From a virus (lineage: Duplodnaviria; Heunggongvirae; Uroviricota; Caudoviricetes): a stretch of DNA of 64,000 nucleotides. Under the pieces are notes generated by a model. It was not told where the DNA came from and searched no databases. It was given only the letters and a program-made list of their open reading frames with translations. Shown here piece after piece: positions 2,525 to 59,468 of the stretch. The translations under genes were made by a program, and so were the position numbers. Location of the stretch: the IMG/VR virus record IMGVR_UViG_3300037087_000772, positions 1-64,000 of that record; one strand, written 5' to 3'. Within the stretch, counting starts at the first letter, position 1; every line of letters starts with the position of its first letter.

Positions 2525-2941
2525 ATGGAAAAACCGAAACAAGTAATTGTTATGAGGAAAGACCTCAATATGAGAAAAGGTAAAATGGTATCTCAGGGCG
2601 CTCATGCCTCTTTTAAAGCCTTTTTGGATTTATGTGAAAAAGAAAACAGAATAAATTTGGAAACTGGTGAATGGAAGATGATTATCTTTCGATATAGAGG
2701 GGATGGTCCTTGGGATCAATGGTTGAATGGTATATTCACAAAAGTTGTTGTTAGTTGTGATAGTGAATCAGAATTACTTGATTTATATCAAAAATCCAAA
2801 GATAAAGGATTACCTTGTTCTTTGATTACGGACTCTGGTCTGACCGAATTTGATGGTGTTCCAACGAATACTTGTATTGCAATAGGGCCATCTTATCCAG
2901 AAACAATAGATGAAATAACAGGACATTTGAAATTATTATGA
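2525..2941 (+). CDS. pth2: peptidyl-tRNA hydrolase, PTH2 family
   Basis: 138 aa. Motifs KxVxVMRKDLNMxKGKMxSQGAHAS, LITDSGLTEFDGVPTNTCIAIGP and the C-terminal ITGHLKLL are characteristic of the PTH2 (archaeal/eukaryotic-type) family. Confidence 0.7.
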   Translation: MEKPKQVIVMRKDLNMRKGKMVSQGAHASFKAFLDLCEKENRINLETGEWKMIIFRYRGDGPWDQWLNGIFTKVVVSCDSESELLDLYQKSKDKGLPCSLITDSGLTEFDGVPTNTCIAIGPSYPETIDEITGHLKLL

Positions 2942-3776: not shown

Positions 3777-4653
3777 TTATTTTTTAGAATGATGATTGTG
3801 TGGTTCAACATGAATAGTCACATCAGTAAAGGGTTGAACCTTTTTTATTTTTTCTTCTAAATCATCAGATATTTCATGTGCCTCAACCAATGTAATACAT
3901 CCAACATGAATGGTGACATCAACATAGTAGATATGTCCAGATTGTCTTATTTTAAATCCATGATAACATTTAATATCATCTCCATAATTCTTTATGACAT
4001 CTTCAATATCTTTAGCTACATCAAAGGGTACTTTATCAAGTAAAGAATCTACGGCTTTTCTTCCAAGTCGGTATGATACATGAATAACAATCAATGCGAC
4101 AAACAAAGCGGCAACGGAGTCAGCATAGAACAACCATCTCATACCAACCAACTTACCTATCGTCACACATATCAAACCGAAAAGAACAACCGATGAACTC
4201 CATATGTCTGTTGAAAAATGAATGGCGTCGGCTTCCAATGCTGGACTGTTGTATTTTTTAGCTGTCCTATGAAGTTTACGGGATCTCCAAAGATGTTATG
4301 ACGATGATATAACTGAATACACTTATCTTTATATCAACATTTCCATTGATTAATCGGTGAATAGATTCCCAACAAATCCAGAAACAGGTTATAAACAGAA
4401 GGAATGTTTCAATTAGGGCTGAAAAATTTTCAATCTTACCATGTCCATAATGATGATCCTTATCGGCCTCTTTAACTGACGCCTTGACAGCATATAAGGT
4501 AATCAAAGCGGCGACTAAATCCAATCCCGAATGGAGTGCCTCGGATAAAATACCCAAACTGTTTGTCCAAGTTCCTATCCCCAATTTAAATGTGGTTAGA
4601 AAAATGGCCGCAAATACAGAAATGAGAGCTACTTTTCGTTTCTCGTGTTTCAT
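3777..4653 (-). pseudogene. cation diffusion facilitator (CDF/CzcD-like) metal efflux transporter split into two ORFs by a frameshift
   Basis: ORF 4276..4653(-) encodes the TM1-4 part of a CDF protein (HSGLDLVAALITL…HHYGHGKIE). ORF 3777..4238(-) encodes TM5-6 plus the cytoplasmic C-terminal domain (FYADSVAALFVALIV…HVEPH). Together they make one CDF protein interrupted around 4238..4276. Confidence 0.5.
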
Positions 4654-5440: not shown

Positions 5441-6157
5441 ATGAAAACGGCTCTACTTATATGTGGCAAATGTCCAGATAATTACAAATATTTTTACGAT
5501 TCGATATACAAAACACTCATAGAACCATTTTGTCCGGATGTGTTTATATCAACTTGGATCGAGAAAGATATTTCCGTATCTGATATTTTGAATTTATATA
5601 AACCAATCAACAGTAAATTCGAGAACTTCACAGATATGAAAGAACAATTGAATGATTTTTCAAATTTTTTAAATGATAATCAAATAAAAGATATTCTTCC
5701 GAGTATGTTTCCCATGTTTTATAAATTACACAATGTCAATAGATTAAGATTGGAATATCAAAAAAGAAGTGGGATTAAGTATGATCTGGTTATCAGAACC
5801 AGATTTGATTTAAACTTTGGAGAAAAAATGGAGTGTAGTATTATCCAACCTTATGTGTTTAATTCTATTGATGAAACGGAAATAAAAGATTCTATTCAGA
5901 ATAATGCTTTATATCTTAGATTAGATCCTTTTGTTGGGAATAGGGTGATAAATGATTGGATTTGGGATCAATTCGCCTTCGGAAATGAAAACAACATGGA
6001 TATATATTGTAATACATTCTTGAACCTGAAAAATATCTTATTGTCGAAAAGGGAGAATGTGAATATTAATGAGAAGGTATTATTTTATAATTTAAAAGAT
6101 AATAATGTGTTATTAAAACAAACTCACACCTCTTACAGAATATCGAATTATGTTTAG
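5441..6157 (+). CDS. hypothetical protein
   Basis: ORF track gives 5420 (TTG start); the first ATG is at 5441 (MKTALLICGK…). A promoter-like AATATATAAAAATA lies just upstream. Confidence 0.4.
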   Translation: MKTALLICGKCPDNYKYFYDSIYKTLIEPFCPDVFISTWIEKDISVSDILNLYKPINSKFENFTDMKEQLNDFSNFLNDNQIKDILPSMFPMFYKLHNVNRLRLEYQKRSGIKYDLVIRTRFDLNFGEKMECSIIQPYVFNSIDETEIKDSIQNNALYLRLDPFVGNRVINDWIWDQFAFGNENNMDIYCNTFLNLKNILLSKRENVNINEKVLFYNLKDNNVLLKQTHTSYRISNYV

Positions 6158-7053
6158 TGGTATAGATTGTTCCTTAAAATATAATCAAAAACATTGACAT
6201 CTAATTTTTCCAATAATTGATTTTTCTTCTTTTCGGTTGGTGTTTTCCAATAGCTTTTCATCATCTTCCTTAATTCGGTTGATGATGCTTCGATAATACC
6301 CGTTTTTTCCTTATTTAAGAAGATATGAGGGGGTTTCAGATACCAATCAATGTTCCCCATCCTTTCGACCCCTTTTCGTGGTATAATGACAAATCTCATC
6401 ATTCTTTCAAGTTCCTGATAATTTACCCATGTATCGAATGTATTGGCGTTATCCTGACCGATAATCATAGAAAAATTATACATCTCTGTAAGATTGGTTT
6501 CTTCCTTTAACCTTTTAACAAAATAGAAGGTTTCCCCGAAAAATTTATTTCTGATTTCATAATCGAACACTTTGATTCGTTTGTCAACCTCAGCGGCTAT
6601 TCGAGCCATCTCCAAACGATGTTCGGCCGGTGCCATACTTTTATTATACATATGATGAAAACATGGTAAAATCCATACTTCATCGAATTCATTACTGGTA
6701 TCCAAAACGAATTTAGCTGTTTGAATATGACCATCGTGGATCATATCAAAAGCTCCACCGTAAAGAGCCACTTTTATTTTCCTACCAAGTGTCTTATATT
6801 GTTCCCTTCTACGGTTTATTTTTATGAGAGTATCTTTAACTAAATCTTCAAAATTCCATCCTGATTCCTCAGCCAACATGATTAAAGAAGCCATCAAGTC
6901 ACCTGTTTCTTCCTTGATGTTCTTTATATCATTCCATTTCATCAGTTCAAAGAATTCATTTGTAATATCTTTTAAACGCTCAGAAAATGGTGTGTAACCG
7001 AAATTTTCTTTGAATGTATCAGCAGTTTGTTTTTGTAGTTTCTTTGTGTCCAT
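6154..7053 (-). CDS. bifunctional MazG-like NTP pyrophosphohydrolase / nicotinate(nicotinamide) mononucleotide adenylyltransferase (NadD/NMNAT) fusion
   Basis: N-terminal MazG/HisE-like motif EETGDLMASLIMLAEESGWNFEDL. C-terminal NadD motifs ALYGGAFDMIHDGH ((H/T)xGH nucleotidyltransferase motif) and IIEASSTELR (ISST-R motif). Confidence 0.7.
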   Translation of the reverse strand: MDTKKLQKQTADTFKENFGYTPFSERLKDITNEFFELMKWNDIKNIKEETGDLMASLIMLAEESGWNFEDLVKDTLIKINRRREQYKTLGRKIKVALYGGAFDMIHDGHIQTAKFVLDTSNEFDEVWILPCFHHMYNKSMAPAEHRLEMARIAAEVDKRIKVFDYEIRNKFFGETFYFVKRLKEETNLTEMYNFSMIIGQDNANTFDTWVNYQELERMMRFVIIPRKGVERMGNIDWYLKPPHIFLNKEKTGIIEASSTELRKMMKSYWKTPTEKKKNQLLEKLDVNVFDYILRNNLYH

Positions 7054-7103: not shown

Positions 7104-7406
7104 TTAAAATTCTTTGGTTTGTTCGAATTGATCCAATAATAAAGAAAATCTCTGTATAAGTTTCTCTTTATCAGATAGTTTCAATTCACCTAACGCGATA
7201 AAAATCTGATGTACTAATTCATGATAAAATGTTTGTCTTTGATAATCTTCAGAACATTTTGAATTTTTTACTGTTTTTGATATTTGAATAATACACTCAA
7301 ATGGATCAGACGATCCACCAGCTGGTTTTACCTTCTCTTTTGTTTCGACTTTAAATTTTAGTCCACCTAAGGTAAAAGATTTGGGAATCCTATTTTTATT
7401 TTTCAT
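7104..7406 (-). CDS. small hypothetical protein with HExxH motif
   Basis: 100 aa; FYHELVHQIF contains HELVH. Confidence 0.3.
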   Translation of the reverse strand: MKNKNRIPKSFTLGGLKFKVETKEKVKPAGGSSDPFECIIQISKTVKNSKCSEDYQRQTFYHELVHQIFIALGELKLSDKEKLIQRFSLLLDQFEQTKEF

Positions 7407-24000: not shown

Positions 24001-24768
24001 ATGGAGCCTCATATAATTTCAGTAAGTCGTAGAGAAGATATTCCCGCATTCCGTGGCGATTGGTTCATGGAGAAAATAAAAAAGGGGTATGTTAATATGG
24101 TAAATCCTTGGTCAACATATACCATATCTTTCGAAAAAGTGAAATTGGCTGTATTCTGGTCGAAGAATCCAAGACCTTTTATGAAATATCTGGATTCTTT
24201 ACCATTCAAATATTATTTCCAATTTACATTAAATGGATATCCAGAATATGAATTAGAAGTCCCACCGATATTAGAAAGAATTGAAACTTTCAAGGAATTA
24301 TCAGATAAAATAGGTAGGGAGTGTGTAATATGGAGATTTGACCCGATTATTATTTCTGATAAAATAACAGAAGAAAAACTTTTAAGAAGAATTGAAAAAA
24401 TTGGGAATGAAATACATAATTATACAGAAAAACTTGTATTTAGTTATATTGATCCCTATAAAAAATTGGGTAATAAATTCAAAGAAGTTCCTGATGATGT
24501 TAAAATTAGAATTTCTAAACAATTAATAGAATTCAATAAAGATTGGGGATTGAAATTAGCCACCTGTGCCGAATCAATTAATTTGGATGGTATAGAACAT
24601 AATAAATGTGTAGATCCTGAATTAATTGAACGAATATGTGGAAAACAAAGATGGATAACGAGTACAAAGGATAAAAATCAAAGAACTGAATGTGGATGTA
24701 TCCAAAGTGGAGATATAGGAACATTTAAAACCTGTAAGCATCATTGTACATACTGTTACGCTTGTTAA
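24001..24768 (+). CDS. DUF1848-like protein (C-terminal Cys cluster CxC…C..HHCTYCYAC)
   Basis: 255 aa; ISVSRREDIPAF…FWSKNP…CGCIQSGDIGTFKTCKHHCTYCYAC matches my recollection of the DUF1848 family. Confidence 0.45.
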   Translation: MEPHIISVSRREDIPAFRGDWFMEKIKKGYVNMVNPWSTYTISFEKVKLAVFWSKNPRPFMKYLDSLPFKYYFQFTLNGYPEYELEVPPILERIETFKELSDKIGRECVIWRFDPIIISDKITEEKLLRRIEKIGNEIHNYTEKLVFSYIDPYKKLGNKFKEVPDDVKIRISKQLIEFNKDWGLKLATCAESINLDGIEHNKCVDPELIERICGKQRWITSTKDKNQRTECGCIQSGDIGTFKTCKHHCTYCYAC

Positions 24769-28005: not shown

Positions 28006-28890
28006 ATGGAATGGGATGCAATAAAATGGGCACAAACCTATAAAACTTCAAATCTTAACAGAAGAAAAGAACTTTTGATTGATGTTTGGGAAAACACGAT
28101 TAAAATCGTTAAGAATGGAAAATACTTCTCGGATGGAGAAGTTATCATTGACAACTCGAAAGTGTGCCAGAACTCTTTATTTACTGAAAATGGCCCAATT
28201 TATGACCCAACGGGGATAAATGACTTTAAAACTGAAATATTGGTCATGGATGCTGATTGTTTGGATGTAGCAAGAACGATGGAAAATCCGATAGTTTTAA
28301 ATATGGCCAGTTATAAGAATCCCGGTGGTGGTGTAATAAATGGTTCATCGGCACAGGAAGAAAATTTATTCAGAAGAACCAATTTATTTAAATCTCTTTA
28401 TCAATATGTTGATTATGCTCATCAGTATGGAATAGAACAAAATTCTAAATACAAATATCCATTGGGTGATTATGGTGCAATCTATTCAAAAGATATAACC
28501 GTTTTTCGTGGTTCTGAAAAAAATGGATATTATTTACTCTCCCATCCATTCAAATGTGCTTTTATATCTGTACCTGCAATAAAAAGACCAGAATTGAAGA
28601 ATAGAAGAATGAATGAAAATGACTTCTCCAAAACCAAACAAAAAATAAGAAGGATTTTTCAATTCGCTCATGAGAATGGACATAGAGATTTAGTTCTTTC
28701 CGCTTTTGGTTGTGGTGCTTATGGAAATCCACCCGAACAGATAGCTTCAATCTTTAAAGAATTATTAGATACTGAATATAAAGGGGTTTTTCATAAGATA
28801 GTATTCGCTATCTATGATGATCATAACTCATATAAAGAACACAATCCAGATGGAAATTTAAAACCATTCAAGAAAATATTTAATATATAA
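28006..28890 (+). CDS. bacterial-type poly(ADP-ribose) glycohydrolase-like macrodomain protein (DUF2263/PARG)
   Basis: 294 aa; LNMASYKNPGGGVINGSSAQEENLFRR carries the PARG signature GGG-X7-QEE; C-terminal LVLSAFGCGAYGNPPE. Confidence 0.7.
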   Translation: MEWDAIKWAQTYKTSNLNRRKELLIDVWENTIKIVKNGKYFSDGEVIIDNSKVCQNSLFTENGPIYDPTGINDFKTEILVMDADCLDVARTMENPIVLNMASYKNPGGGVINGSSAQEENLFRRTNLFKSLYQYVDYAHQYGIEQNSKYKYPLGDYGAIYSKDITVFRGSEKNGYYLLSHPFKCAFISVPAIKRPELKNRRMNENDFSKTKQKIRRIFQFAHENGHRDLVLSAFGCGAYGNPPEQIASIFKELLDTEYKGVFHKIVFAIYDDHNSYKEHNPDGNLKPFKKIFNI

Positions 28891-30985: not shown

Positions 30986-31712
30986 TATAAATAAAATATA
31001 TTTCGATAATTGTTTACATCTAATGCCTGATATTGATACTCATATTGTTGATATGATTCTTGCTGATTTACCATACGGAGTCACAAGAAACAAGAAAGAT
31101 ATTATGATCCCATTTGAATTACTCTGGAAGAACTACAATCGAATTATAAAACCGAATGGATGTATTGCTTTATTCGCTCAGGGAATGTTCGCTCACAAAC
31201 TTGCTTTATCTAATGAGAAAATGTATCGTTATGATTTGATATGGAAAAAAGGAGAAAGGGTCACTGGATTTTTAAATGCAAAAAAACAAATACTTAGAAA
31301 CCATGAGCAAATTTTGATTTTCTATAAAAAACAACCAACTTACCATCCACAATTTACAGAGGGGACACCTCAGCATTCAAAAGGTAACGCTTTTTCTTTC
31401 AAAGAAGGAAAAAATCAAAATTATGGTTATTTTGATTCGAAAATTCCAGATATAAGAAAAGGAACTACACAAAAATATCCGAAAAGTGTTTTAAACTTCG
31501 AAAAACCTTGGCCACCTGTACATAGAACCCAAAAACCAGTAAAATTGTGTGAATGGTTAATATTGACCTTTACGAATCCCGGAGAATTAGTACTGGATAA
31601 CACTTGTGGTATTGGAACAACCTGTATAGCAGCTAAGAATACAGGAAGAAATTTCATAGGAATTGAAAATGATGAAGAATTTTATAATATGGATTATTAT
31701 CATTTGTTATGA
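30978..31712 (+). CDS. DNA methyltransferase, N6-adenine/N4-cytosine family (beta class: motif IV before motif I)
   Basis: 244 aa; ILADLPYG is a motif IV variant of DPPY; C-terminal LVLDNTCGIGTTCIAAKNTGRNFIGIENDEEF is the motif I FxGxG region typical of the N6_N4_Mtase family. Confidence 0.7.
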   Translation: MIDINKIYFDNCLHLMPDIDTHIVDMILADLPYGVTRNKKDIMIPFELLWKNYNRIIKPNGCIALFAQGMFAHKLALSNEKMYRYDLIWKKGERVTGFLNAKKQILRNHEQILIFYKKQPTYHPQFTEGTPQHSKGNAFSFKEGKNQNYGYFDSKIPDIRKGTTQKYPKSVLNFEKPWPPVHRTQKPVKLCEWLILTFTNPGELVLDNTCGIGTTCIAAKNTGRNFIGIENDEEFYNMDYYHLL

Positions 31713-32216
31713 ATAAATATTAGAATCATCTATATCCCAACTTCCATCATTTTTAATATTCTTAATATAATTCGGGTAAAACATAATAAAATCTTTTCTA
31801 ATTACATCAATATCAGTATTGGACTTTTCAATAATTATACCATCATAATTTAACAATATCTTATTCTTTATATTAATTATCTCACTCTTCCATTCCTTAA
31901 CATCATTCATATAATCAAACCAAGTTTCATAAATCTTTGGATTTTCTATTTTCAAATAAACTTTTAAAATTTTCGGATTTAATTTATTGTGTGTAAAAAC
32001 TTTAGCAACCTTTAATGATTCAGTAAACCAACACCCTTTACTACAATCAAATATTTTATCAATAGTTGATTTATAATATTCACCTGTTCCGTGATAAGCA
32101 ATTAATGGATGATTATTTTCATCTACGACTTTACTTTCATCAAACCATTTATAAAAATTAGGATTTAAATTTTTATATTCTTCAAACATTTTTAGATATT
32201 TCATAGAATTTACCAT
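31707..32216 (-). CDS. hypothetical protein
   Basis: 169-aa ORF. Confidence 0.4.
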   Translation of the reverse strand: MVNSMKYLKMFEEYKNLNPNFYKWFDESKVVDENNHPLIAYHGTGEYYKSTIDKIFDCSKGCWFTESLKVAKVFTHNKLNPKILKVYLKIENPKIYETWFDYMNDVKEWKSEIINIKNKILLNYDGIIIEKSNTDIDVIRKDFIMFYPNYIKNIKNDGSWDIDDSNIYS

Positions 32217-37240: not shown

Positions 37241-37454
37241 ATGCTTTAATTATTTTATTGAGAATAAATGCTTCCATATCTATCATACATTTTCCATATC
37301 CATCTGGAGTTTTTTCAGTAAAATTAGAAGCGGTATCAGCTACGGCATCATGTGAGATAGACATTGTAAAATCATTTATAGTAAAATGAAACATTCCGAA
37401 TTGATATGGATCAAAAAGAATTTTATATCCACCAAATTCAATTTCTTTTTTCAT
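37215..37454 (-). CDS. small hypothetical protein
   Basis: 79-aa ORF. Confidence 0.3.
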   Translation of the reverse strand: MKKEIEFGGYKILFDPYQFGMFHFTINDFTMSISHDAVADTASNFTEKTPDGYGKCMIDMEAFILNKIIKAYEEHRNSR

Positions 37455-37966
37455 TTACTTTTTTTATTTTTCGCTGTTATAAGATCATGAATAGCCTTAA
37501 TAATTTTGGCATAAAATTTATCCAAATTGTAAACTATTTCTTGTTCTGGTCTTGCTAATTTGGTTTGAATTTCGACATCGGATATTCTCTCATATTCTTC
37601 ATCACAACCTATTACTATTTTTGTCGGTTGAGATGTACCATGTTTACCAAGTTCATATAATACAATTGGATTTAGAGATCCTTTGGAGAACCAAAAAACA
37701 ATAATATCAGATTCTCTTAATCCCTTGTATTCCCATGTTATTTGTTCTACACTGGCATTGGGATCATCAATCGGGAAATTTTTTCTACGGGGGTTAAGTA
37801 CTGTAACTTGATCTAATAAATATTTATCATATTCTTTTTTTTCAGCTTTCATTTTTTCAATGAGTTCAGCCTGCCAATCTGGACAATTGGTTATACCACC
37901 AGCCAAAAATAATTTTAATTCATTTTCTTCCTGTGGCTTATTCGGGGCTTCTATAATTTCTAACAT
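37451..37966 (-). CDS. nucleoside 2-deoxyribosyltransferase-like / DNPH1-like protein
   Basis: 171 aa; KLFLAGGITNCPDWQ…ESDIIVFWF…LYELGKHG fits the Nuc_deoxyrib_tr-like fold signature. Confidence 0.45.
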   Translation of the reverse strand: MLEIIEAPNKPQEENELKLFLAGGITNCPDWQAELIEKMKAEKKEYDKYLLDQVTVLNPRRKNFPIDDPNASVEQITWEYKGLRESDIIVFWFSKGSLNPIVLYELGKHGTSQPTKIVIGCDEEYERISDVEIQTKLARPEQEIVYNLDKFYAKIIKAIHDLITAKNKKSK

Positions 37967-41763: not shown

Positions 41764-43593
41764 TTAGATTAAGTAACCATGTGTATCAGTAACTTTAATA
41801 CTCATGTATTGTTTTTCTGGGAAGAAACCGATATCAGATACTGCGTATCTTGAACGGATTAACATTCTTGGTGCCCATGTTGCTTCACTGATTAAACTGA
41901 TAGACTGTGCCATCAAATAAGGAATGAAAACAAGACCCGGCTGGTCAATTGTGTTCTTTCTTCCTACGAAGATTTGATTGTCATCCCATCTCATGTAAGG
42001 ATCTACATAAATTTGGATGTTACCGATGTTACCCATTGGGTATAACTGACCGTTGGTGTTTAATTTACCAACATTGGTTGGGTTAAGTGTGTAACCAGCG
42101 ATATCTTGTAATACGGAAGCGATGTTACCGTTTGTTACTAAATATTGAGCTGGTCCAATTCTACCATCAGTAGCGATGAAGTTAGAAGCGTTGTTGATCT
42201 TGGCAACTAACTTTCTTTGAATTGTGTGGGTTGTTTCACCACCCGGTGCGTAACCAGTTGCTGACAAGTAGGTATCAACATTGAAGTCAAATTTACTTGT
42301 TCCGTCTGCGTTCTTTGGACAGGTGTTTGAAATTCTGTTCTTAGCTGCCAAACTTCTGATCTTAGCTACGATTTCTTTTGAAATAACCTGAGTTAATTCA
42401 TTGATAAGAACACCTTCCAATTTCTGAACGATGTCCATTCCAGTAGCGGCTTTAATATCCTCAATTTGAGTTCTCTTTAAAGCTGAACTGATTTCGATGT
42501 CACCAACGGTAACAACTTTTGTGAATACGTCAGGACCAATAACACCCGGATAGGTCTTTTCATCCTGATATCTGTTCATTGCACCACCACCGTTTGACTT
42601 GTAGTTATCTCTGTCTGCGGCTGCTTGAGCTGACCATGCATCTTCGAAACCATTTTGTCCTGCTGAAAATCCCGGTAATTGATCTTCCAATAAGGAAACC
42701 AATGTGATTGTGGCACCAGTGATATAACTTGTCCAAGTTGGAACAACTGATGTAGTTGTACCTGAAGCGTAGACGAAACCACCGATTAAAGTAGTTGTCA
42801 TGGCTGTAGTTTGGTCAAATGTATTCTTAGCTGCTGTCCAAGCTGAACCATCTTGTGGTAATACTGGACCAACTGAGAAACCAGCTTGACGATAACATCT
42901 GAAAATTGGTAATCCATCAATTCTGGAGAATCCTAAGAATTCCAACCAGTTTACTTTTGATGCTGTTCCCGGACCACTTATTAAGGTTTTACCACTACCA
43001 CCAAAGGTTGTGTCACTACCTAAATAAACCCAAGTTCTCTTATCAATTCCACCAATTCTTTCTTGAATCTGATAAACACCTAATTGCCATTTCAAATCAG
43101 CGATGATAGCTGCTGTAATAGTAGCTGCTGTTGCACCACCACCTTGTAATTTGAAAACCAATGGTCTTTGTTCAGCTTCTTGATCTTCACGAGATCCATC
43201 ACCATAAGCATTATCGTATTTGAAATCTACGAATAACAACTCAATTCTTGGAGAAGCGGTTGGTTTTACAGCTACTAAATCTAAACCGATTGTTTGAGCT
43301 GCGATCTTCATTGATACTGGAAGTAAATTCTGTGCAACATCACCACTACCGATGTTACCAGCACCTGCTTGCCATACTGAAGATGGGATAGTTCCAACTG
43401 TTGGAGCTAAAATGTTACCCATACCGTTTTGGTTAAGGTTGACATATGCCACGTTTTCATTGATATGAAGCTGGTGCATTTCAGCGTATTCGGCCATCCA
43501 TTCTCTTTTTTCTTCGTCCTTTACTTTTAAGGCTTCGAGGATTGGTGTCCATTTCTTTAAAGCTTTTGCTTTGTCTACTATAAAGTGTGTCAT
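41764..43593 (-). CDS. major capsid protein, T4 gp23-like
   Basis: 609 aa. Position in the portal–protease/scaffold–MCP order; N-terminal propeptide-like region; overall resemblance to gp23, including the C-terminal segment (…PYLMAQSISLISEATWAPRMLIRSRYAV…). TATAAATA-like motif about 25 nt upstream of the ATG; strong terminator downstream. Confidence 0.75.
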   Translation of the reverse strand: MTHFIVDKAKALKKWTPILEALKVKDEEKREWMAEYAEMHQLHINENVAYVNLNQNGMGNILAPTVGTIPSSVWQAGAGNIGSGDVAQNLLPVSMKIAAQTIGLDLVAVKPTASPRIELLFVDFKYDNAYGDGSREDQEAEQRPLVFKLQGGGATAATITAAIIADLKWQLGVYQIQERIGGIDKRTWVYLGSDTTFGGSGKTLISGPGTASKVNWLEFLGFSRIDGLPIFRCYRQAGFSVGPVLPQDGSAWTAAKNTFDQTTAMTTTLIGGFVYASGTTTSVVPTWTSYITGATITLVSLLEDQLPGFSAGQNGFEDAWSAQAAADRDNYKSNGGGAMNRYQDEKTYPGVIGPDVFTKVVTVGDIEISSALKRTQIEDIKAATGMDIVQKLEGVLINELTQVISKEIVAKIRSLAAKNRISNTCPKNADGTSKFDFNVDTYLSATGYAPGGETTHTIQRKLVAKINNASNFIATDGRIGPAQYLVTNGNIASVLQDIAGYTLNPTNVGKLNTNGQLYPMGNIGNIQIYVDPYMRWDDNQIFVGRKNTIDQPGLVFIPYLMAQSISLISEATWAPRMLIRSRYAVSDIGFFPEKQYMSIKVTDTHGYLI

Positions 43594-46271: not shown

Positions 46272-46616
46272 ATGCTAATTTCAAAGATTGTTCAGATTGT
46301 AATTACGAAAAGAAATATCGGATTTTTTCGTAAAAAAGGATACGATGCTGAAATGATGGATACCCTTAGTGTATTTGTGGGAGATTTACCCGAAAATAGT
46401 CATTGTGAAGTTGATGTTTCTTGTGATAATTGTAAAAAAATTAGAAAAATGAAATATTTTGAGTATAAAAGATATGGTGATAAATATATGTGTAGACAAT
46501 GTTCGGAAGGTAAAAGGCAAGAAACAAGCATGAAAAATTGGGGGGTTGATAATCCCTCCAAGAGTGATATAATAAAACAAAAGATAAGTGATACCTTAAA
46601 AAAATTAAAATCTTAG
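46272..46616 (+). CDS. small zinc-ribbon protein with NUMOD-like C-terminus (possible homing-endonuclease remnant or DNA-binding protein)
   Basis: 114 aa; CEVDVSCDNCKK…CRQCSEG Cys4. The C-terminal NWGVDNPSKSDIIKQKISDTLKK resembles NUMOD3-type DNA-binding modules of free-standing homing endonucleases. Opposite in orientation to the flanking head genes. Confidence 0.35.
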   Translation: MLISKIVQIVITKRNIGFFRKKGYDAEMMDTLSVFVGDLPENSHCEVDVSCDNCKKIRKMKYFEYKRYGDKYMCRQCSEGKRQETSMKNWGVDNPSKSDIIKQKISDTLKKLKS

Positions 46617-48427
46617 ATAGTGGGTGTTTGTCCACCACCTTGTCCTTGTCCACCGGCCTGACCACCTCCACCCTGAGGTCCACCAGCTGGGCCACCCTGA
46701 GGAACACCACCTTGCGGTGCACCACCCTGAGGACCACCAACACCACCTTGCGGTGCACCACCCTGAGGACCACCAACACCACCTTGAGCACCACCTTCAG
46801 GGGCACCACCTTCAGGAGGCGGAATTTCTCCACCACCACCCGGACCACCACCACCCGGCTCTTCTGGTGGATTTAATCCCTGCTCTAGCATAAATTTCTT
46901 TCGTTCTATCATTTTATATTTCTCATTTTCTTCAATATCTTTATCAGTGAATTTCATGATATTACGGGCTATCCATTCAACACTTAAATATGGTTTATCT
47001 CCCATATCTCTTAAATTACTGGATAGATTGGCTGCTATTGATGCCCTTTTATCTAAGTTGGCTAAATATTTCCATTCTTCAAATAACACATCAGAATTAA
47101 ACATTAACTTCATAGAGTTAAAGAATACAACATCTTTCTTTAATTCTGGAAAATTCAAAATCATTTGAATTCTCAAAGGTTTAGTAATAATTTCTTTAAA
47201 AATGGTTCTAATACGATTGATAAAATTCTTGAACTTAATTTCATCTCTGGTTATCTGAGTAGTTGAGTCATATAATGTACCACCACCACTTTCTTCTTCG
47301 AATCTTTGGAATGGAATTTTACTTGCTCTTTTAAAATTCTTAAAGAACCATTGTAAAGTAACATCTTCTGCTAGATTATTTTGTTCTGGTTTTACTATTT
47401 CGAATGATGGTGTTTGACCAGCACTTGATGGAAACCAGAAATCTTTTGCGTGAGGAATGTTTGTACTTCCATTCATCATAACCAATCCTAAGTGTTCATC
47501 CCATTGAACATCTTCATGGTAATCGGACATTAATTCATAAATCTGTTGTTCGGCTTGTTGACGGGATAAACCATCAACTGGAATTATAAATTTTTTGTAA
47601 AGAGAAGCTTGATTAATATTGTATAATAATTTTGCCTGTTCAATCATTTTTAATTGATTAAAAGGTCTAATAAGGTTTTCAACATAACTTGTATCACCAT
47701 ATTCATTATTATTAGAATATGATATGTATACAATTTGTGAATCCAATAATACTCTACGAAGTTGAGGATTATCTGGGTATTGAATCCAGATCATTGTATT
47801 GGATACTGGATCTGTAGCCACAATTAATGTTATTGGATCAAGTGGGGCCAAATCTATGATATTTTTTTGACGATCATCATAAATGATTTCATAAGCGATA
47901 TAACCATCAATCAATAAACTTTTAAGATAATTCCAAGCAACGACACCATCAATAAAATTGAATTCGTTCATTAATCTATCAAACACTTCTTGATATTTTT
48001 GTCTTGTTGTTTGGTCGTAACTATCTGGTAAATCCTTTATATAACAAAATTTGTTATTGTCATCATATATAATACACTCATCACATATTTGAATGATGAA
48101 GTCCTTTATTTCATCTTTGATTGAATATTGTCTTAGAATTTTTCTTTTATCTAAATATGTTCTATCTAAATAGGCTATTGATTTCTTATCGAGAAAACGA
48201 GCAATCGTTTTTTTAGTAAATAAATCATACATATTTGTACTCTGGGGATGGTATAAAACATCACTCGTTTCTTCATGAACACCCAAGGCATAAGCATTTT
48301 TGATCTTCATATCATTATAATCAAGACCACCAAAAACATTAGATAATCCTCTTAAAACTCTGTTGAAAATTGTCGGGTTTTGTTGGGCTGACTGTTGACT
48401 TGAATAATCACCTCTATAACTTGCCAC
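46613..48427 (-). CDS. portal vertex protein, T4 gp20-like, with Gly/Pro/Gln-rich C-terminal extension
   Basis: 604 aa; YDSTTQITRDEIKFKNFINRIRTIFKEIITKPLRIQMILNFPEL closely parallels T4 gp20 [38 protein letters not shown]. The C-terminal ~90 aa is GC-rich tandem-repeat-encoded low complexity (GGVGGPQGGAPQGG…). Confidence 0.75.
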   Translation of the reverse strand: MASYRGDYSSQQSAQQNPTIFNRVLRGLSNVFGGLDYNDMKIKNAYALGVHEETSDVLYHPQSTNMYDLFTKKTIARFLDKKSIAYLDRTYLDKRKILRQYSIKDEIKDFIIQICDECIIYDDNNKFCYIKDLPDSYDQTTRQKYQEVFDRLMNEFNFIDGVVAWNYLKSLLIDGYIAYEIIYDDRQKNIIDLAPLDPITLIVATDPVSNTMIWIQYPDNPQLRRVLLDSQIVYISYSNNNEYGDTSYVENLIRPFNQLKMIEQAKLLYNINQASLYKKFIIPVDGLSRQQAEQQIYELMSDYHEDVQWDEHLGLVMMNGSTNIPHAKDFWFPSSAGQTPSFEIVKPEQNNLAEDVTLQWFFKNFKRASKIPFQRFEEESGGGTLYDSTTQITRDEIKFKNFINRIRTIFKEIITKPLRIQMILNFPELKKDVVFFNSMKLMFNSDVLFEEWKYLANLDKRASIAANLSSNLRDMGDKPYLSVEWIARNIMKFTDKDIEENEKYKMIERKKFMLEQGLNPPEEPGGGGPGGGGEIPPPEGGAPEGGAQGGVGGPQGGAPQGGVGGPQGGAPQGGVPQGGPAGGPQGGGGQAGGQGQGGGQTPTI

Positions 48428-49319: not shown

Positions 49320-49838
49320 TTAAAATAATTTTACTTTTGGATTGTCTTTATCTTCAAAAAACTTAGGTGTTATTATATAAAATTCAATCCCTTTTTTTTC
49401 ACAAAATTTCTTAGCAGCTGACCACTTGATAATATTTTTCTGAAATGTTCTCAAAGCATATTCGTAATTCTTCAAGGATTTTGCTGTTTTTGTCTTAGGT
49501 TCTTTTGGTGGTTCAAAATTTCTATATTCACTCCAAGGTTTTATTTCTAAAACAACTATACGAGTACTACCATCACTCTTTTTAAATTCACAATAAGCGT
49601 CAGGATAATAACGATGTGTACTCCAATTTCCATGTTCATTAACTTCATATGGAATTGTTAATCCCTCAGCTGACCACTTTAAAACTCTATTATTGTTGTC
49701 TAAATAGTAATAGAGTTTCCTTTCCCAAGATGATCTAAAATAAATTCTTTCAAGATCTCCCAAATATTTATCTGGGTTCATACAAACATAAAGACCCTGA
49801 TGGTATTTTTTATTATTAGGTGGATGACTATTTCCCAT
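49320..49838 (-). CDS. hypothetical protein
   Basis: 172-aa ORF; promoter motif at 49855..49864, 16 nt upstream. Confidence 0.45.
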   Translation of the reverse strand: MGNSHPPNNKKYHQGLYVCMNPDKYLGDLERIYFRSSWERKLYYYLDNNNRVLKWSAEGLTIPYEVNEHGNWSTHRYYPDAYCEFKKSDGSTRIVVLEIKPWSEYRNFEPPKEPKTKTAKSLKNYEYALRTFQKNIIKWSAAKKFCEKKGIEFYIITPKFFEDKDNPKVKLF

Positions 49839-58943: not shown

Positions 58944-59468
58944 ATGAACAAAAACAACAGAGAAAAAACAGAAAAAATCAATCATCAAATTACATCTCAT
59001 TCAGTTAGACTAATATTTACAGATGGAACTCAACCATATGTAACCACAACAACGGAAGCTTTACAATTGTCGAAAGACTTGGGTGTGGATCTAATTGAAA
59101 TTTCACCAACAGCAAACCCACCAGTTTGTAAAATGATGGATTACAATAAGTTCCTTTACGAAAAGAAACAAAAAGACAAAGAAAATCAGAAAAACAATAA
59201 AAAAATAAAATTGAAAGAGATCCGTATGACTTATAATACGGGAGAACATGATTTCAATTTTAAATTAAATCATGCCATCAATTTTCTCAACGATGGTGAT
59301 AAAGTTAAAGCCTTTATATTTTTCGCTGGCCGAGAGCTAAAATTCAAAGAAATCGGGGAATTATTATTGTTGAAATTCGTTGATGGACTTAAAGAAGTCG
59401 GAAAAATTGAAAATATGCCTAAACTGGATGGTAACAGATTGTGGGTCATAATCCAACCGAAAAAATAA
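58944..59468 (+). CDS. infC: translation initiation factor IF-3 homologue
   Basis: 174 aa. Co-linear with bacterial IF3 over its whole length: VRLIFTDGTQ…ALQLSKDLGVDLIEISPTANPPVCKMMDYNKFLYEKKQK…KLKEIRMTYNTGEHDFNFKL…FLNDGDKVKAFIFFAGRE…MPKLDGNRLWVIIQPKK against E. coli …VRLTGLEGEQ…[29 protein letters not shown]…[20 protein letters not shown]…FLEEGKKAKITLRFRGRE…TKIEGRQMIMVLAPKK. Confidence 0.85.
   Translation: MNKNNREKTEKINHQITSHSVRLIFTDGTQPYVTTTTEALQLSKDLGVDLIEISPTANPPVCKMMDYNKFLYEKKQKDKENQKNNKKIKLKEIRMTYNTGEHDFNFKLNHAINFLNDGDKVKAFIFFAGRELKFKEIGELLLLKFVDGLKEVGKIENMPKLDGNRLWVIIQPKK

Follow-up and report, generated by a model that had tools for sequence, protein, structure and literature searches.

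A MazG-NadD fusion protein of a huge phage and its predicted role in NAD+ synthesis

The source of the DNA described here is a huge phage (contig of ~0.74 Mb), one of whose genes encodes a protein that sequence matches and structure models identify as a two-domain enzyme, with an N-terminal MazG-type domain joined to a C-terminal NadD-type domain. The fusion is conserved, rare, and apparently undescribed, and it appears to be the new part of the finding. The explanation that we favor, at a probability of about 55%, is that the protein is a nicotinate mononucleotide (NaMN) adenylyltransferase with a built-in nucleotide-sanitizing and/or oligomerizing MazG module that would sustain NAD+. All positions refer to the window, that is, the whole stretch of 64,000 nucleotides that was analyzed (positions 1 to 64,000 of IMG/VR record IMGVR_UViG_3300037087_000772).

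A two-domain protein with MazG and NadD motifs

The open reading frame (ORF) of the fusion lies on the minus strand at exactly positions 6154 to 7053 and, according to the ORF list and the sequence, runs from an ATG start to a TAA stop and encodes 299 amino acids. The window uses the standard code with ordinary stop-codon usage, which together with the TAA stop makes the ORF boundaries safe. An alternative genetic code, suspected from a split cation-efflux gene, was rejected, as that gene has a frameshift and no in-frame stop. At least 15 contigs, of up to 736,551 bp, carry a protein identical to the query, and full-length homologues (57 to 100% identity) that retain every motif make up at least 120 clusters, so the ORF is not due to chance. 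Conservation of the two domains is equal (mean pairwise identity, 66% and 67%). The AlphaFold2 (AF2) model of the full protein has two domains (mean pLDDT, 91.2; pTM, 0.69) and an interdomain linker at about residues 81 to 92 (6778 to 6813, minus strand; pLDDT of 58 at residues 81 to 90). The linker includes the conserved QYKxLGRK, in which Q85, Y86, L89, G90, and R91 are invariant across the query's homologue family. The sequence-only reading had placed MazG and NadD in one polypeptide and proposed domain searches as a check; those searches matched MazG (PF03819), CTP_transf_like (PF01467), and NadD models, and the Pfam, NCBIfam, PDB sequence, and fold matches agree. The BFVD viral fold library gave no full-length two-domain match (best TM over the query, 0.49), and a PHROGs search with the fusion protein gave no significant family.

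Residues 1 to 90 (6784 to 7053, minus strand) form a MazG-type all-alpha NTP pyrophosphohydrolase domain, as judged from Pfam, profile, and AF2 fold matches, with four helices at residues 3 to 18, 23 to 39, 43 to 63, and 68 to 88. PF03819 matched residues 31 to 84 (E = 7e-7; 29.8 bits against a gathering cutoff of 22), and the profile of the domain matched E. coli MazG (3cra) at 9e-9. Modeled alone, the domain is a four-helix bundle (pLDDT, 92.5) whose 15 best PDB fold matches were all MazG, MazZ, YpjD, or HisE, with TM of 0.6 to 0.8 and weak E values (≥0.012). Among its closest structural matches is the MazG-like enzyme of cyanophage S-2L, solved with dGDP bound. The metal-binding signature ExxE(12-28)ExxD was read from the sequence as E33-F-F-E36 (6946 to 6957, minus strand) and E48-E49-T-G-D52 (6898 to 6912, minus strand) and is complete in the query, with 12 residues between E33xxE36 and E49xxD52. 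Close homologues keep E33 and E36 (118 of 120 each), D52 (119 of 120), and E49 and G51 (all 120). K78 and R82, which we take from MazG proteins generally to be the triphosphate-binding residues, are likewise retained among homologues. The nature of the domain is evident from its fold, its motifs, and their family-wide conservation; its substrate we infer.

The remainder of the protein, residues 93 to 299 (6157 to 6777, minus strand), is a NadD-type nicotinate (nicotinamide) mononucleotide adenylyltransferase domain by Pfam, NCBIfam, PDB, and Foldseek. PF01467 matched residues 97 to 263 (E = 2e-17), and the 12 best NCBIfam matches were all NadD/NMNAT models (E = 3e-28 to 5e-6). The best of these, TIGR00482 (E = 3e-28), scored 99 bits, under its curated equivalog (trusted) cutoff of 112.45, and the domain is therefore too divergent for automatic naming. 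A PDB sequence search matched NadD structures alone (best, B. subtilis 1kam at 5e-12), while the best Foldseek match was B. subtilis NadD 1kaq (TM of 0.86 over the target; E = 3e-14) and the top 50 were all NadD, NaMNAT, or NMNAT. The nucleotidyltransferase motif (H/T)xGH is H106-D-G-H109 (6727 to 6738, minus strand), read from the sequence within GGAFDMIHDGH (residues 99 to 109), a match to the motif G-x-F-x-P-x-(H/T)-x-G-H that has Met104 where Pro, the family consensus, usually precedes HxGH. The ISSTxxR motif of NadD/NMNAT, also read from the sequence, is S257-S-T-E-L-R262 (6268 to 6285, minus strand; ASSTELR at residues 256 to 262). Both motifs had been called intact, and they are so in the query and across its 120 close homologues: 74 have H and 46 have T at position 106, H109, S257, and S258 are present in all 120, and G108, T259, and R262 are present in 110, 116, and 118, respectively. 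A G-E-T-F stretch, in which Glu174 is nearly invariant, aligns to the "SYT" segment of NadD. The sequence alone does not discriminate between preference for NaMN and for NMN.

Relatives of the fusion and their NAD genes

The gene had been read as a phage gene, and the window bears this out with genes for a Gp23-like capsid protein, DNA polymerase B, IF3, and a portal of the T4 type; megablast of its first 25 kb against GenBank phages gave no match at the DNA level. Three further genes provide context: an ART-PolyVal ADP-ribosyltransferase-like gene that is a candidate NAD+ consumer (12728 to 13228, plus strand; weak match to PF18760), a second ART-PolyVal gene (31707 to 32216, minus strand; PF18760), and a PARG_cat_microb, poly-ADP-ribose glycohydrolase-like gene (28006 to 28890, plus strand; PF10021). 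The sequence-only reading had suggested looking for a partner Nampt (NadV) or ADPR-PP/Namat, and this search came up empty, as Pfam found no Nampt, Adps/Namat, PncA, PncB, NadE, NadR, or PnuC in the 64-kb window; the 3.8-kb flank upstream of the window has no NAD partner gene. With respect to the named NAD+ reconstitution pathways, the window has no PRPS-like or phosphoribosyltransferase-family Pfam match (NARP1 pair) and neither PnuC nor NadR (NARP3), no NAPRTase/Nampt-family gene was found in the window or in 26 related neighborhoods (NARP2), and the adenylyltransferase has no Nudix domain. Of the features that define "NAD-jumbo phages," a size above 200 kb (736,551-bp contig) and nadD are present, and pncB and nadE are not in the window. 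The window also maps to about 432 to 495 kb of the JGI contig Ga0334813_000005 (597,284 bp). Among the best 120 matches listed in a PncB protein search, none was on the 736,551- or the 597,284-bp contig; a metagenome scan for PncB gave at least 576 matches, and the 80 best-scoring of these included none from Ga0334813_000005. The direct neighbors of the fusion are unique to the window and are not conserved in relatives.

The fusion has relatives on IMG/VR contigs of 200 to 676 kb, and phage LR756501 (735 kb) encodes another. We compared 26 related loci, and no conserved operon runs through all of them. A PncA-like isochorismatase lies within 8 kb of the fusion in 7 of the 26 and PncB in 6, NadE lies 2 kb downstream at one locus, and a Macro domain is near the fusion at three loci, two of which additionally have a TonB receptor and a NadR-like gene. 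A contig of 669,408 bp is listed in a fusion cluster, and a contig of the same size is in a PncB cluster. Phage LR756501 carries the fusion together with an island of PncB, NadE, TonB receptor, PnuC, NadR, and PncA and falls within the Preiss-Handler definition of NAD-jumbo phages. Since PncA, PncB, and NadE cluster with the fusion in related huge phages, the enzyme most likely works in the deamidated Preiss-Handler route, on NaMN, rather than in a Nampt/NMN route, and since a separate NadR covers NMN in LR756501, a NadD-type enzyme fits NaMN there. An HD-like gene with no significant Pfam match recurs near PncA (seven loci).

A search of 1.84 billion proteins yielded only 108 representatives of the subfamily to which the N-terminal domain belongs, and in ~51 of these the domain directly precedes NadD. 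The architecture, earlier called unusual, is thus rare but not a one-off, as it is conserved in a clade of huge phages and is also present, with NAD kinase, in Pirellulales. These planctomycetes have MazG-NadD-X-NAD kinase proteins, one representative of which adjoins NadE; in a further protein (P0325), the domain is fused to NAD kinase without a recognizable active NadD. Standalone homologues of the domain (~100 amino acids) are found in ordinary phages, with no NAD neighbors, in ordinary phage replication-type neighborhoods. When 185,579 species genomes were scanned with a single sequence, no relative was returned, and a profile scan of species genomes returned three MAG contigs only (Saccharofermentanales, Aureispira, and Methanothrix), the species-genome scan being a nonexhaustive one with two peptide patterns that missed the Pirellulales proteins. 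We rejected these MAG contigs as cellular homes for the fusion: their taxonomy is discordant, and the Saccharofermentanales contig has a viral-like neighborhood, with genes (PncA, PncB, and others) that it shares with IMG/VR viral contigs, so the three are probably misbinned phage DNA.

Proposed function and alternatives

We propose that the C-terminal domain would convert NaMN and ATP to nicotinate adenine dinucleotide (NaAD), the third Preiss-Handler step, on a route that would lead from nicotinamide to nicotinate (PncA), NaMN (PncB), NaAD (NadD), and NAD+ (NadE), the other steps being provided for this phage by genes beyond the window or by the host. The MazG domain may form the core through which the enzyme assembles as a dimer or tetramer, and it may hydrolyze NTPs that NadD could misuse (dATP, other non-ATP, and aberrant NTPs). 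Such NTPs are plentiful in an infected cell, and their removal would keep NAD synthesis clean. The module would then be a pre-emptive counterpart of the YqeK (HD) domain, which proofreads the products of NadD, and of the Nudix domain in NadM-Nudix fusions. The expected net effect is that NAD+ is sustained or raised in the infected cell, for the phage's own NAD-consuming enzymes, possibly for offsetting NADase-based defense, or for both. The counter-depletion role put forward in the sequence-only reading may hold, but the gene could just as well supply NAD+ to NAD-consuming enzymes that the phage itself encodes; the window has two ART-PolyVal genes and a PARG-like gene. That the MazG domain serves specifically as a fidelity or sanitizing module, letting nicotinamide released by NADases become clean NAD+ in a dNTP-flooded cell, is a suggestion that we make tentatively; its targets would then be dATP, wrong or damaged NTPs, and possibly nucleotide analogues made by defense systems.

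A mainly noncatalytic MazG domain, which would oligomerize NadD or sense nucleotides with hydrolysis only incidental, is conceivable but doubtful. The domain has been kept despite loss of E33/E36 in 22 of the 51 NadD-fused representatives and of residues of both motifs in 17 of the 51, and the tetrad is degenerate in all planctomycete MazG-NadD-NadK proteins (Q33, with S, K, or G at position 36). On a rough NJ tree (indicative only), the losses fall on scattered branches, which implies several independent events, and because fused lineages have lost the tetrad repeatedly, catalysis is not the universal reason for the fusion. The architecture of P0325 adds to this argument, as it suggests that what the fusions share is an NAD enzyme as partner, not one particular reaction. 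On the other hand, the clade of the query keeps the tetrad (118 to 120 of 120), its MazG domain is conserved as strongly as NadD and retains K78 and R82 as well, and oligomerization and catalysis can coexist. Linkage to NAD kinase, which releases ADP rather than PPi, also speaks against a MazG domain that pulls or regulates the pathway by hydrolyzing PPi or by cleaving NAD/NaAD or ADP-ribose-type dinucleotides, a role that we regard as improbable: the typical reaction of all-alpha NTP-PPases is cleavage of NTPs between the alpha and beta phosphates, and inorganic pyrophosphatase is already abundant in cells. What commends it is that NadD releases PPi in a reversible reaction, that PncB makes PPi too, that the Nudix domain of NadM offers a precedent, and that T. 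maritima MazG reportedly has pyrophosphatase along with NTP-PPase activity. Moreover, an NMN-engineering study (PMC13609833) coexpressed mazG with genes of the NAD pathway.

The Nampt/NMN route of the sequence-only reading would make the protein an NMN adenylyltransferase acting after a phage or host Nampt, NARP2-like and selected chiefly against TIR/SIR2-type NAD depletion. Both NaMN and NMN are substrates of many NadD/NMNAT enzymes, NAD reconstitution is established as counter-defense for NARP1, NARP2, and NARP3, the window has NAD+/ADP-ribose conflict-type genes (ART-PolyVal twice and PARG-like), and Glu174, near the predicted pyridine-nucleotide site, might disfavor a carboxylate. We nonetheless consider this route unlikely, as Nampt is absent from the window and from all 26 related neighborhoods, the genes that do co-occur with the fusion are PncA, PncB, and NadE, the adenylyltransferases of NARP2 and NARP3 are of the NadM-Nudix and NadR types and not of the NadD type, and in LR756501 a separate NadR already covers NMN. 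It is far less probable still that the C-terminal domain is another enzyme of the HIGH superfamily (PPAT, FAD synthetase, cytidylyltransferase, or heptose adenylyltransferase). That identity would fit the general Pfam family, CTP_transf_like, the TIGR00482 score under the trusted cutoff, and weak matches to CoaD and RfaE models (E = 0.003 to 0.05) and to a heptose-adenylyltransferase PHROG (0.02), but it is at odds with the twelve best NCBIfam models, the NadD-only PDB sequence matches, the NadD- or NMNAT-type top fold matches, the invariant SSTxxR motif, the co-location of PncA, PncB, and NadE in relatives, and the NAD kinase fusion in planctomycetes. The sequence-only reading had named missing catalytic His residues or a different nucleotidyltransferase family as grounds for abandoning NadD; both His residues are present, and no other family came near the NadD score.

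NAD+ is central to the conflict of phages with bacterial immunity, and the three phage NAD+ reconstitution pathways named so far include none with NadD or a deamidated route. Huge phages have a NadD-based Preiss-Handler toolkit (PncA, PncB, MazG-NadD, and NadE), often accompanied by a Macro domain, TonB receptor, PnuC, and NadR, in which the NadD step is consistently joined to a MazG domain, and planctomycete proteins for NAD(P) synthesis have the same rare pairing. If MazG proofreads or sanitizes the supply of NadD, the metabolite damage control of NadD-YqeK would reach viruses, and this would account for the repeated gain of nucleotide hydrolases by NAD-synthesis adenylyltransferases. If its role is structural only, the fusion would be a modest annotation refinement of the published NAD-jumbo phage story.

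Comparison with known systems

Bacterial NadD proteins (for example, B. subtilis 1KAM/1KAQ and B. anthracis 3E27) resemble the query in fold (TM, 0.86; 24 to 28% identity) and in having (H/T)xGH and ISSTxxR, and the relatives of the query are, like them, associated with PncB and NadE. Unlike bacterial NadD, the query is phage encoded, has a MazG domain of ~90 amino acids at its N terminus, falls below the trusted cutoff of TIGR00482, and has GETF for the SYT segment and Met104 for the usual Pro. The single-domain all-alpha NTP pyrophosphohydrolases MazG, MazZ, and YpjD (E. coli 3CRA, S. solfataricus 1VMG, cyanophage S-2L 7ODY, and Bacillus 5IE9) share with it the four-helix fold, ExxE...ExxD, and the K/R pair of the last helix, whereas the domain of the query is fused to NadD and its subfamily is very narrow. 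The Pirellulales MazG-NadD-X-NAD kinase proteins (for example, MCP4888674.1, of 763 amino acids) have the same N-terminal subfamily directly followed by an intact NadD but are cellular, continue into a degenerate second nucleotidyltransferase-like domain and NAD kinase, and have a tetrad with Q33 and K, S, or G at position 36.

NAD-jumbo phages are, like the phage studied here, huge phages with NAD+ synthesis genes, for which nadD and pncB-nadD-nadE clusters have been published (Li et al. 2024, Microbiome, PMC11662467). That study names the nadD of the 735-kb phage and classed the phage as having nadD only, whereas we found a whole NAD island in it. In the record of this phage, tblastn gave a single NadD-type match, a full-length homologue of the query (49% identity), so the published nadD and this homologue are presumably the same gene. 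Neither MazG nor a fusion is mentioned in the text of PMC11662467 (0 occurrences).

NadM-Nudix (phage KVP40-type, NARP2) and NadR (NARP3), which are both part of phage NAD+ reconstitution, likewise combine a phage pyridine-nucleotide adenylyltransferase with a second nucleotide-handling domain, NadM-Nudix being a bifunctional NMNAT/ADP-ribose pyrophosphatase. They differ from the query in adenylyltransferase subfamily, in partner (Nudix or P-loop kinase), and in route (Nampt/NMN or NR, compared with the probable Preiss-Handler route of the query type). NadD-YqeK of Mycoplasma and Firmicutes (PRK07152; Haas et al., bioRxiv 10.1101/2021.12.01.470718) pairs NadD itself with a nucleotide phosphohydrolase, and the published role of YqeK is proofreading of NaAD analogues together with nucleotide sanitizing, in that it hydrolyzes 8-oxo-GTP as well as the analogues that arise when NadD uses the wrong (d)NTPs. 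The hydrolase there is a di-iron HD enzyme at the C terminus, as opposed to an all-alpha MazG domain in the opposite order, and the query matches only the NadD half of PRK07152 (model positions 2 to 184 of 361). Should the MazG domain prove to be a fidelity or sanitizing module, MazG-NadD would be the third independently evolved solution that joins an adenylyltransferase to a nucleotide hydrolase, after NadM-Nudix and NadD-YqeK, and would define a further phage pathway of NAD+ reconstitution, of the Preiss-Handler type, alongside NARP1, NARP2, and NARP3.

Domain architecture and genomic source of the fusion

The 299-aa ORF at 6154..7053 on the minus strand (ATG to TAA) encodes a single polypeptide joining MazG and NadD, as the sequence-only reading had proposed. 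Pfam placed MazG (PF03819) at aa 31 to 84 (E = 7e-7, exceeding the gathering score) and a cytidylyltransferase-like domain (PF01467) at aa 97 to 263 (E = 2e-17). The top 12 NCBIfam matches were all NadD/NMNAT models, the best of which, TIGR00482 (E = 3e-28; 99 bits), scored slightly below its trusted cutoff of 112. NadD structures were the sole matches in a PDB sequence search, led by Bacillus subtilis 1kam (5e-12), and a PHROGs search returned no family for the protein. Both nucleotidyltransferase motifs named in that reading were read in the DNA (HDGH at 6727 to 6738 and SSTELR at 6268 to 6285, minus strand), along with both halves of the MazG metal-binding signature, EFFE (6946 to 6957, minus strand) and EETGD (6898 to 6912, minus strand), which together form ExxE(12)ExxD. 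The earlier observation was thus confirmed in every detail, and its interpretation was supported in part.

An AlphaFold2 model of the fusion built with 119 homologues (mean pLDDT, 91.2) showed two domains separated by a low-confidence linker at residues 81 to 90. The C-terminal domain matched B. subtilis NadD 1kaq (TM score, 0.86; E = 3e-14), and its best 50 PDB fold matches were all NadD, NaMNAT, or NMNAT enzymes; it is very probably a functional NaMN/NMN adenylyltransferase. Modeled separately, the N-terminal 92 residues formed four helices (pLDDT, 92.5), and all of their best 15 PDB fold matches were all-alpha NTP pyrophosphohydrolases, including Escherichia coli MazG, Sulfolobus solfataricus MazG (TM score, 0.80; rmsd, 1.8 Å), Bacillus MazG, YpjD, and HisE. 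Also among the nearest structural matches was the MazG-like enzyme of cyanophage S-2L, which was solved with dGDP bound. The sequence profile of the N-terminal domain recovered E. coli MazG at 9e-9.

The source of the fusion is a huge phage. Window genes were called from precomputed Pfam results on contigs with identical proteins and from our own scans; they include a Gp23-family major capsid gene (41764 to 43593) and a T4-type portal gene (46613 to 48427), as well as family-B DNA polymerase and 5'-3' exonuclease genes. Translation-related genes typical of huge phages were also present, namely, IF3 (58944 to 59468, plus strand) and a PTH2-type peptidyl-tRNA hydrolase (2525 to 2941, plus strand). 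At least 15 contigs carried the exact fusion protein; the largest spans 736,551 bp, and another is a JGI contig of 597,284 bp. The genome has a GC content of ~29% and uses the standard genetic code. No GenBank phage matched the window at the DNA level in a megablast of its first 25 kb; at the protein level, LR756501, an uncultured phage of 735,411 bp, encodes a full-length fusion homologue with 49% identity.

Cell-like genes in the window encode a Band_7 protein, a DnaJ-domain protein, and a hybrid histidine kinase (62180 to 63991, minus strand; PAS, HisKA, HATPase_c, and receiver domains; E = 1e-17 to 4e-23), the last an unusual cargo even for huge phages. A cation-efflux (CDF) transporter gene (3777 to 4653, minus strand) is split into 125-aa and 153-aa ORFs; the cause is a frameshift and not a stop codon in frame. 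Because the same split occurs in four independently assembled contigs (L001 to L004), it is real, and the gene either is a pseudogene or undergoes programmed frameshifting. The ORF immediately upstream of the fusion (100 aa; 7104 to 7406, minus strand, as is the fusion) is separated from it by a 50-nt gap and carries a HELVH (HExxH) zinc-metallopeptidase-like motif; it had no Pfam match and no homologue in related loci. Precomputed Pfam results alone identified a gene with a TnsA-like endonuclease N-terminal domain (49320 to 49838, minus strand) beside the structural module and, elsewhere, a DUF1848 gene (24001 to 24768, plus strand).

Distribution and conservation

Full-length fusion homologues formed at least 120 clusters (90% identity), with 57 to 100% identity to the query. 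Among 120 close homologues, the MazG tetrad residues were intact in 118 to 120; position 106 was H or T, H109, S257, and S258 were invariant, and R262 was retained in 118. The two domains were equally conserved (mean pairwise identity, 66.4% and 67.2%). IMG/VR held 22 fusion loci, many on contigs of 200 to 676 kb, and a pattern-limited scan of 185,579 species genomes recovered only three MAG contigs, which were taxonomically discordant and are probably misbinned phage DNA. BFVD, a set of reference viral protein structures, contained no two-domain match. An exhaustive HMMER search of 1.84 billion proteins with the N-terminal domain alone returned only 108 representatives, ~51 of which had a NadD domain immediately following. 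Standalone members (~100 aa) had neighborhoods of the ordinary phage replication type. Together with the clade-wide conservation, these counts indicate that the fusion is rare in sequence space yet stable and selected within its clade. The architecture is therefore unusual, as first described, but not peculiar to one genome, and the gene encodes a genuine two-domain huge-phage enzyme maintained by selection.

The N-terminal domain also occurs in longer planctomycete proteins. Representatives P0271 (763 aa), P0284 (762 aa), and P0297 (633 aa) consist of MazG and NadD followed by a second, degenerate nucleotidyltransferase-like domain and, last, NAD kinase, while P0325 (556 aa) combines MazG and NAD kinase, with no recognizable active NadD. 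Where an NCBI name was available (the P0271 cluster and P0297), it placed the sequences in Rubripirellula, Pirellulales, and Planctomycetaceae; their contigs reach 390 kb. The neighborhood of P0284 looks bacterial, and a glutamine-dependent NadE immediately precedes the gene. The MazG domain is degenerate in these proteins, all of which have lost the ExxE pair. The 556- to 763-aa chains look like a multidomain NAD(P) "synthase," and we found no description of them in the literature. Recurrence in two such different settings ties this N-domain subfamily specifically to NAD(P) biosynthetic enzymes.

NAD pathway context

The sequence-only reading had suggested looking for a Nampt partner, but neither the window nor its 3.8-kb upstream flank contained an NAD partner gene, and the fusion's immediate neighbors were not conserved in other loci. 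Four window genes do have an NAD+/ADP-ribose theme, none adjoining the fusion: two ART-PolyVal ADP-ribosyltransferase-like genes (12728 to 13228, plus strand; 31707 to 32216, minus strand), a microbial PARG-like gene (28006 to 28890, plus strand), and a nucleoside 2-deoxyribosyltransferase-like gene (37451 to 37966, minus strand).

Among 26 related loci, seven had a PncA-like isochorismatase (44% identity to an annotated phage nicotinamidase) within 8 kb of the fusion and six had PncB (NAPRTase; 3e-63). Locus L028 had NadE 2 kb downstream. A Macro-domain gene followed shortly after the fusion in L013, L022, and L029 (directly in L013), and L022 and L013 also carried a TonB-dependent receptor and a NadR-like gene. 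In LR756501, the fusion lies at 30.9 kb and a separate NAD island at 423 to 431 kb (LR756501.1 423,001 to 431,474; L032 13002 to 21475, minus strand), encoding PncB, NadE (NAD_synthase, 2e-62), a TonB-dependent receptor, PnuC (NMN_transporter, 2e-44), a NadR-like protein (nucleotidyltransferase plus AAA_28), and a PncA-like isochorismatase. For both the fusion cluster P0093 and the PncB cluster P0157, the longest contig listed measures 669,408 bp and is probably one and the same.

Since NMN is already covered in LR756501 by a separate NadR, the nonredundant job of a NadD-type enzyme would be NaMN, which implies the Preiss-Handler route, starting from nicotinamide and passing through nicotinate. 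The relatives' context likewise points to this route rather than the Nampt route, and we put the probability that the fusion serves Preiss-Handler-type NAD+ supply at roughly 0.6 to 0.7. Counter-defense seems less likely to be the main selective force than NAD+ supply to NAD consumers encoded by the phage itself; the window carries the two ART-PolyVal genes and the PARG-like gene noted above.

Two other genes were observed near PncA. In L005, deposited as a Saccharofermentanales MAG, an IS605 OrfB/Cas12f-like TnpB gene (10647 to 11825, plus strand) sits between PncA and PncB. Seven related loci carry an HD-like "GHDLIEDP" gene (L016 3407 to 3787, L021 1930 to 2778, L029 1588 to 2097, and four more) that by eye resembles SpoT/Mesh1-type hydrolases; it had no significant Pfam match and could be a further member of a phage NAD/nucleotide cluster.

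Phage nadD biology is already known. In their account of "NAD-jumbo phages," Li et al. (2024; PMC11662467) reported phages encoding either a salvage or a Preiss-Handler pathway, with pncB-nadD-nadE clusters among them, and explicitly noted nadD of the 735-kb phage, never mentioning MazG. That phage was said, unlike other largest phages, to lack a complete NR salvage pathway, with only nadD named (PMC11662467); given its NAD island, this classification looks incomplete. Surveys of phage NAD systems name NadV, NadM-Nudix, and NadR-kinase but neither NadD nor a MazG fusion; NARP1 and NARP2 involve no NadD, PncB, or MazG, and NARP3 consists of PnuC and NadR. The literature searched seems to contain no account of the conserved MazG-NadD fusion, of how it is distributed, or of its planctomycete relatives.

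Role of the MazG domain

Of the wider family's NadD-fused representatives, 28 had all four acidic residues intact, 22 had lost the ExxE pair, and 17 had lost residues in both halves. These losses were scattered on a rough neighbor-joining tree, indicating several independent events in which the domain itself was retained. The MazG domain must then have a noncatalytic value, most simply oligomerization, because single-domain MazG proteins are active as dimers or tetramers. The query's lineage seems to have kept catalysis as an additional function, and we lean toward an active domain there.

If active, a MazG NTP pyrophosphohydrolase beside NadD may preemptively remove dATP and other non-ATP nucleotides before NadD uses them, an attractive role because dNTP pools are swollen in infected cells. 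Removal of PPi or cleavage of dinucleotides by MazG is a weaker alternative, given that NAD kinase, to which the domain is also fused, does not release PPi. The best precedent for a catalytic role is NadD-YqeK: NadD can use wrong (d)NTPs, yielding NaAD analogues, and the fused HD-domain hydrolase YqeK cleaves these analogues and 8-oxo-GTP (Haas et al., bioRxiv 10.1101/2021.12.01.470718). NadM-Nudix offers another example in which an NAD adenylyltransferase and a nucleotide pyrophosphatase are fused.
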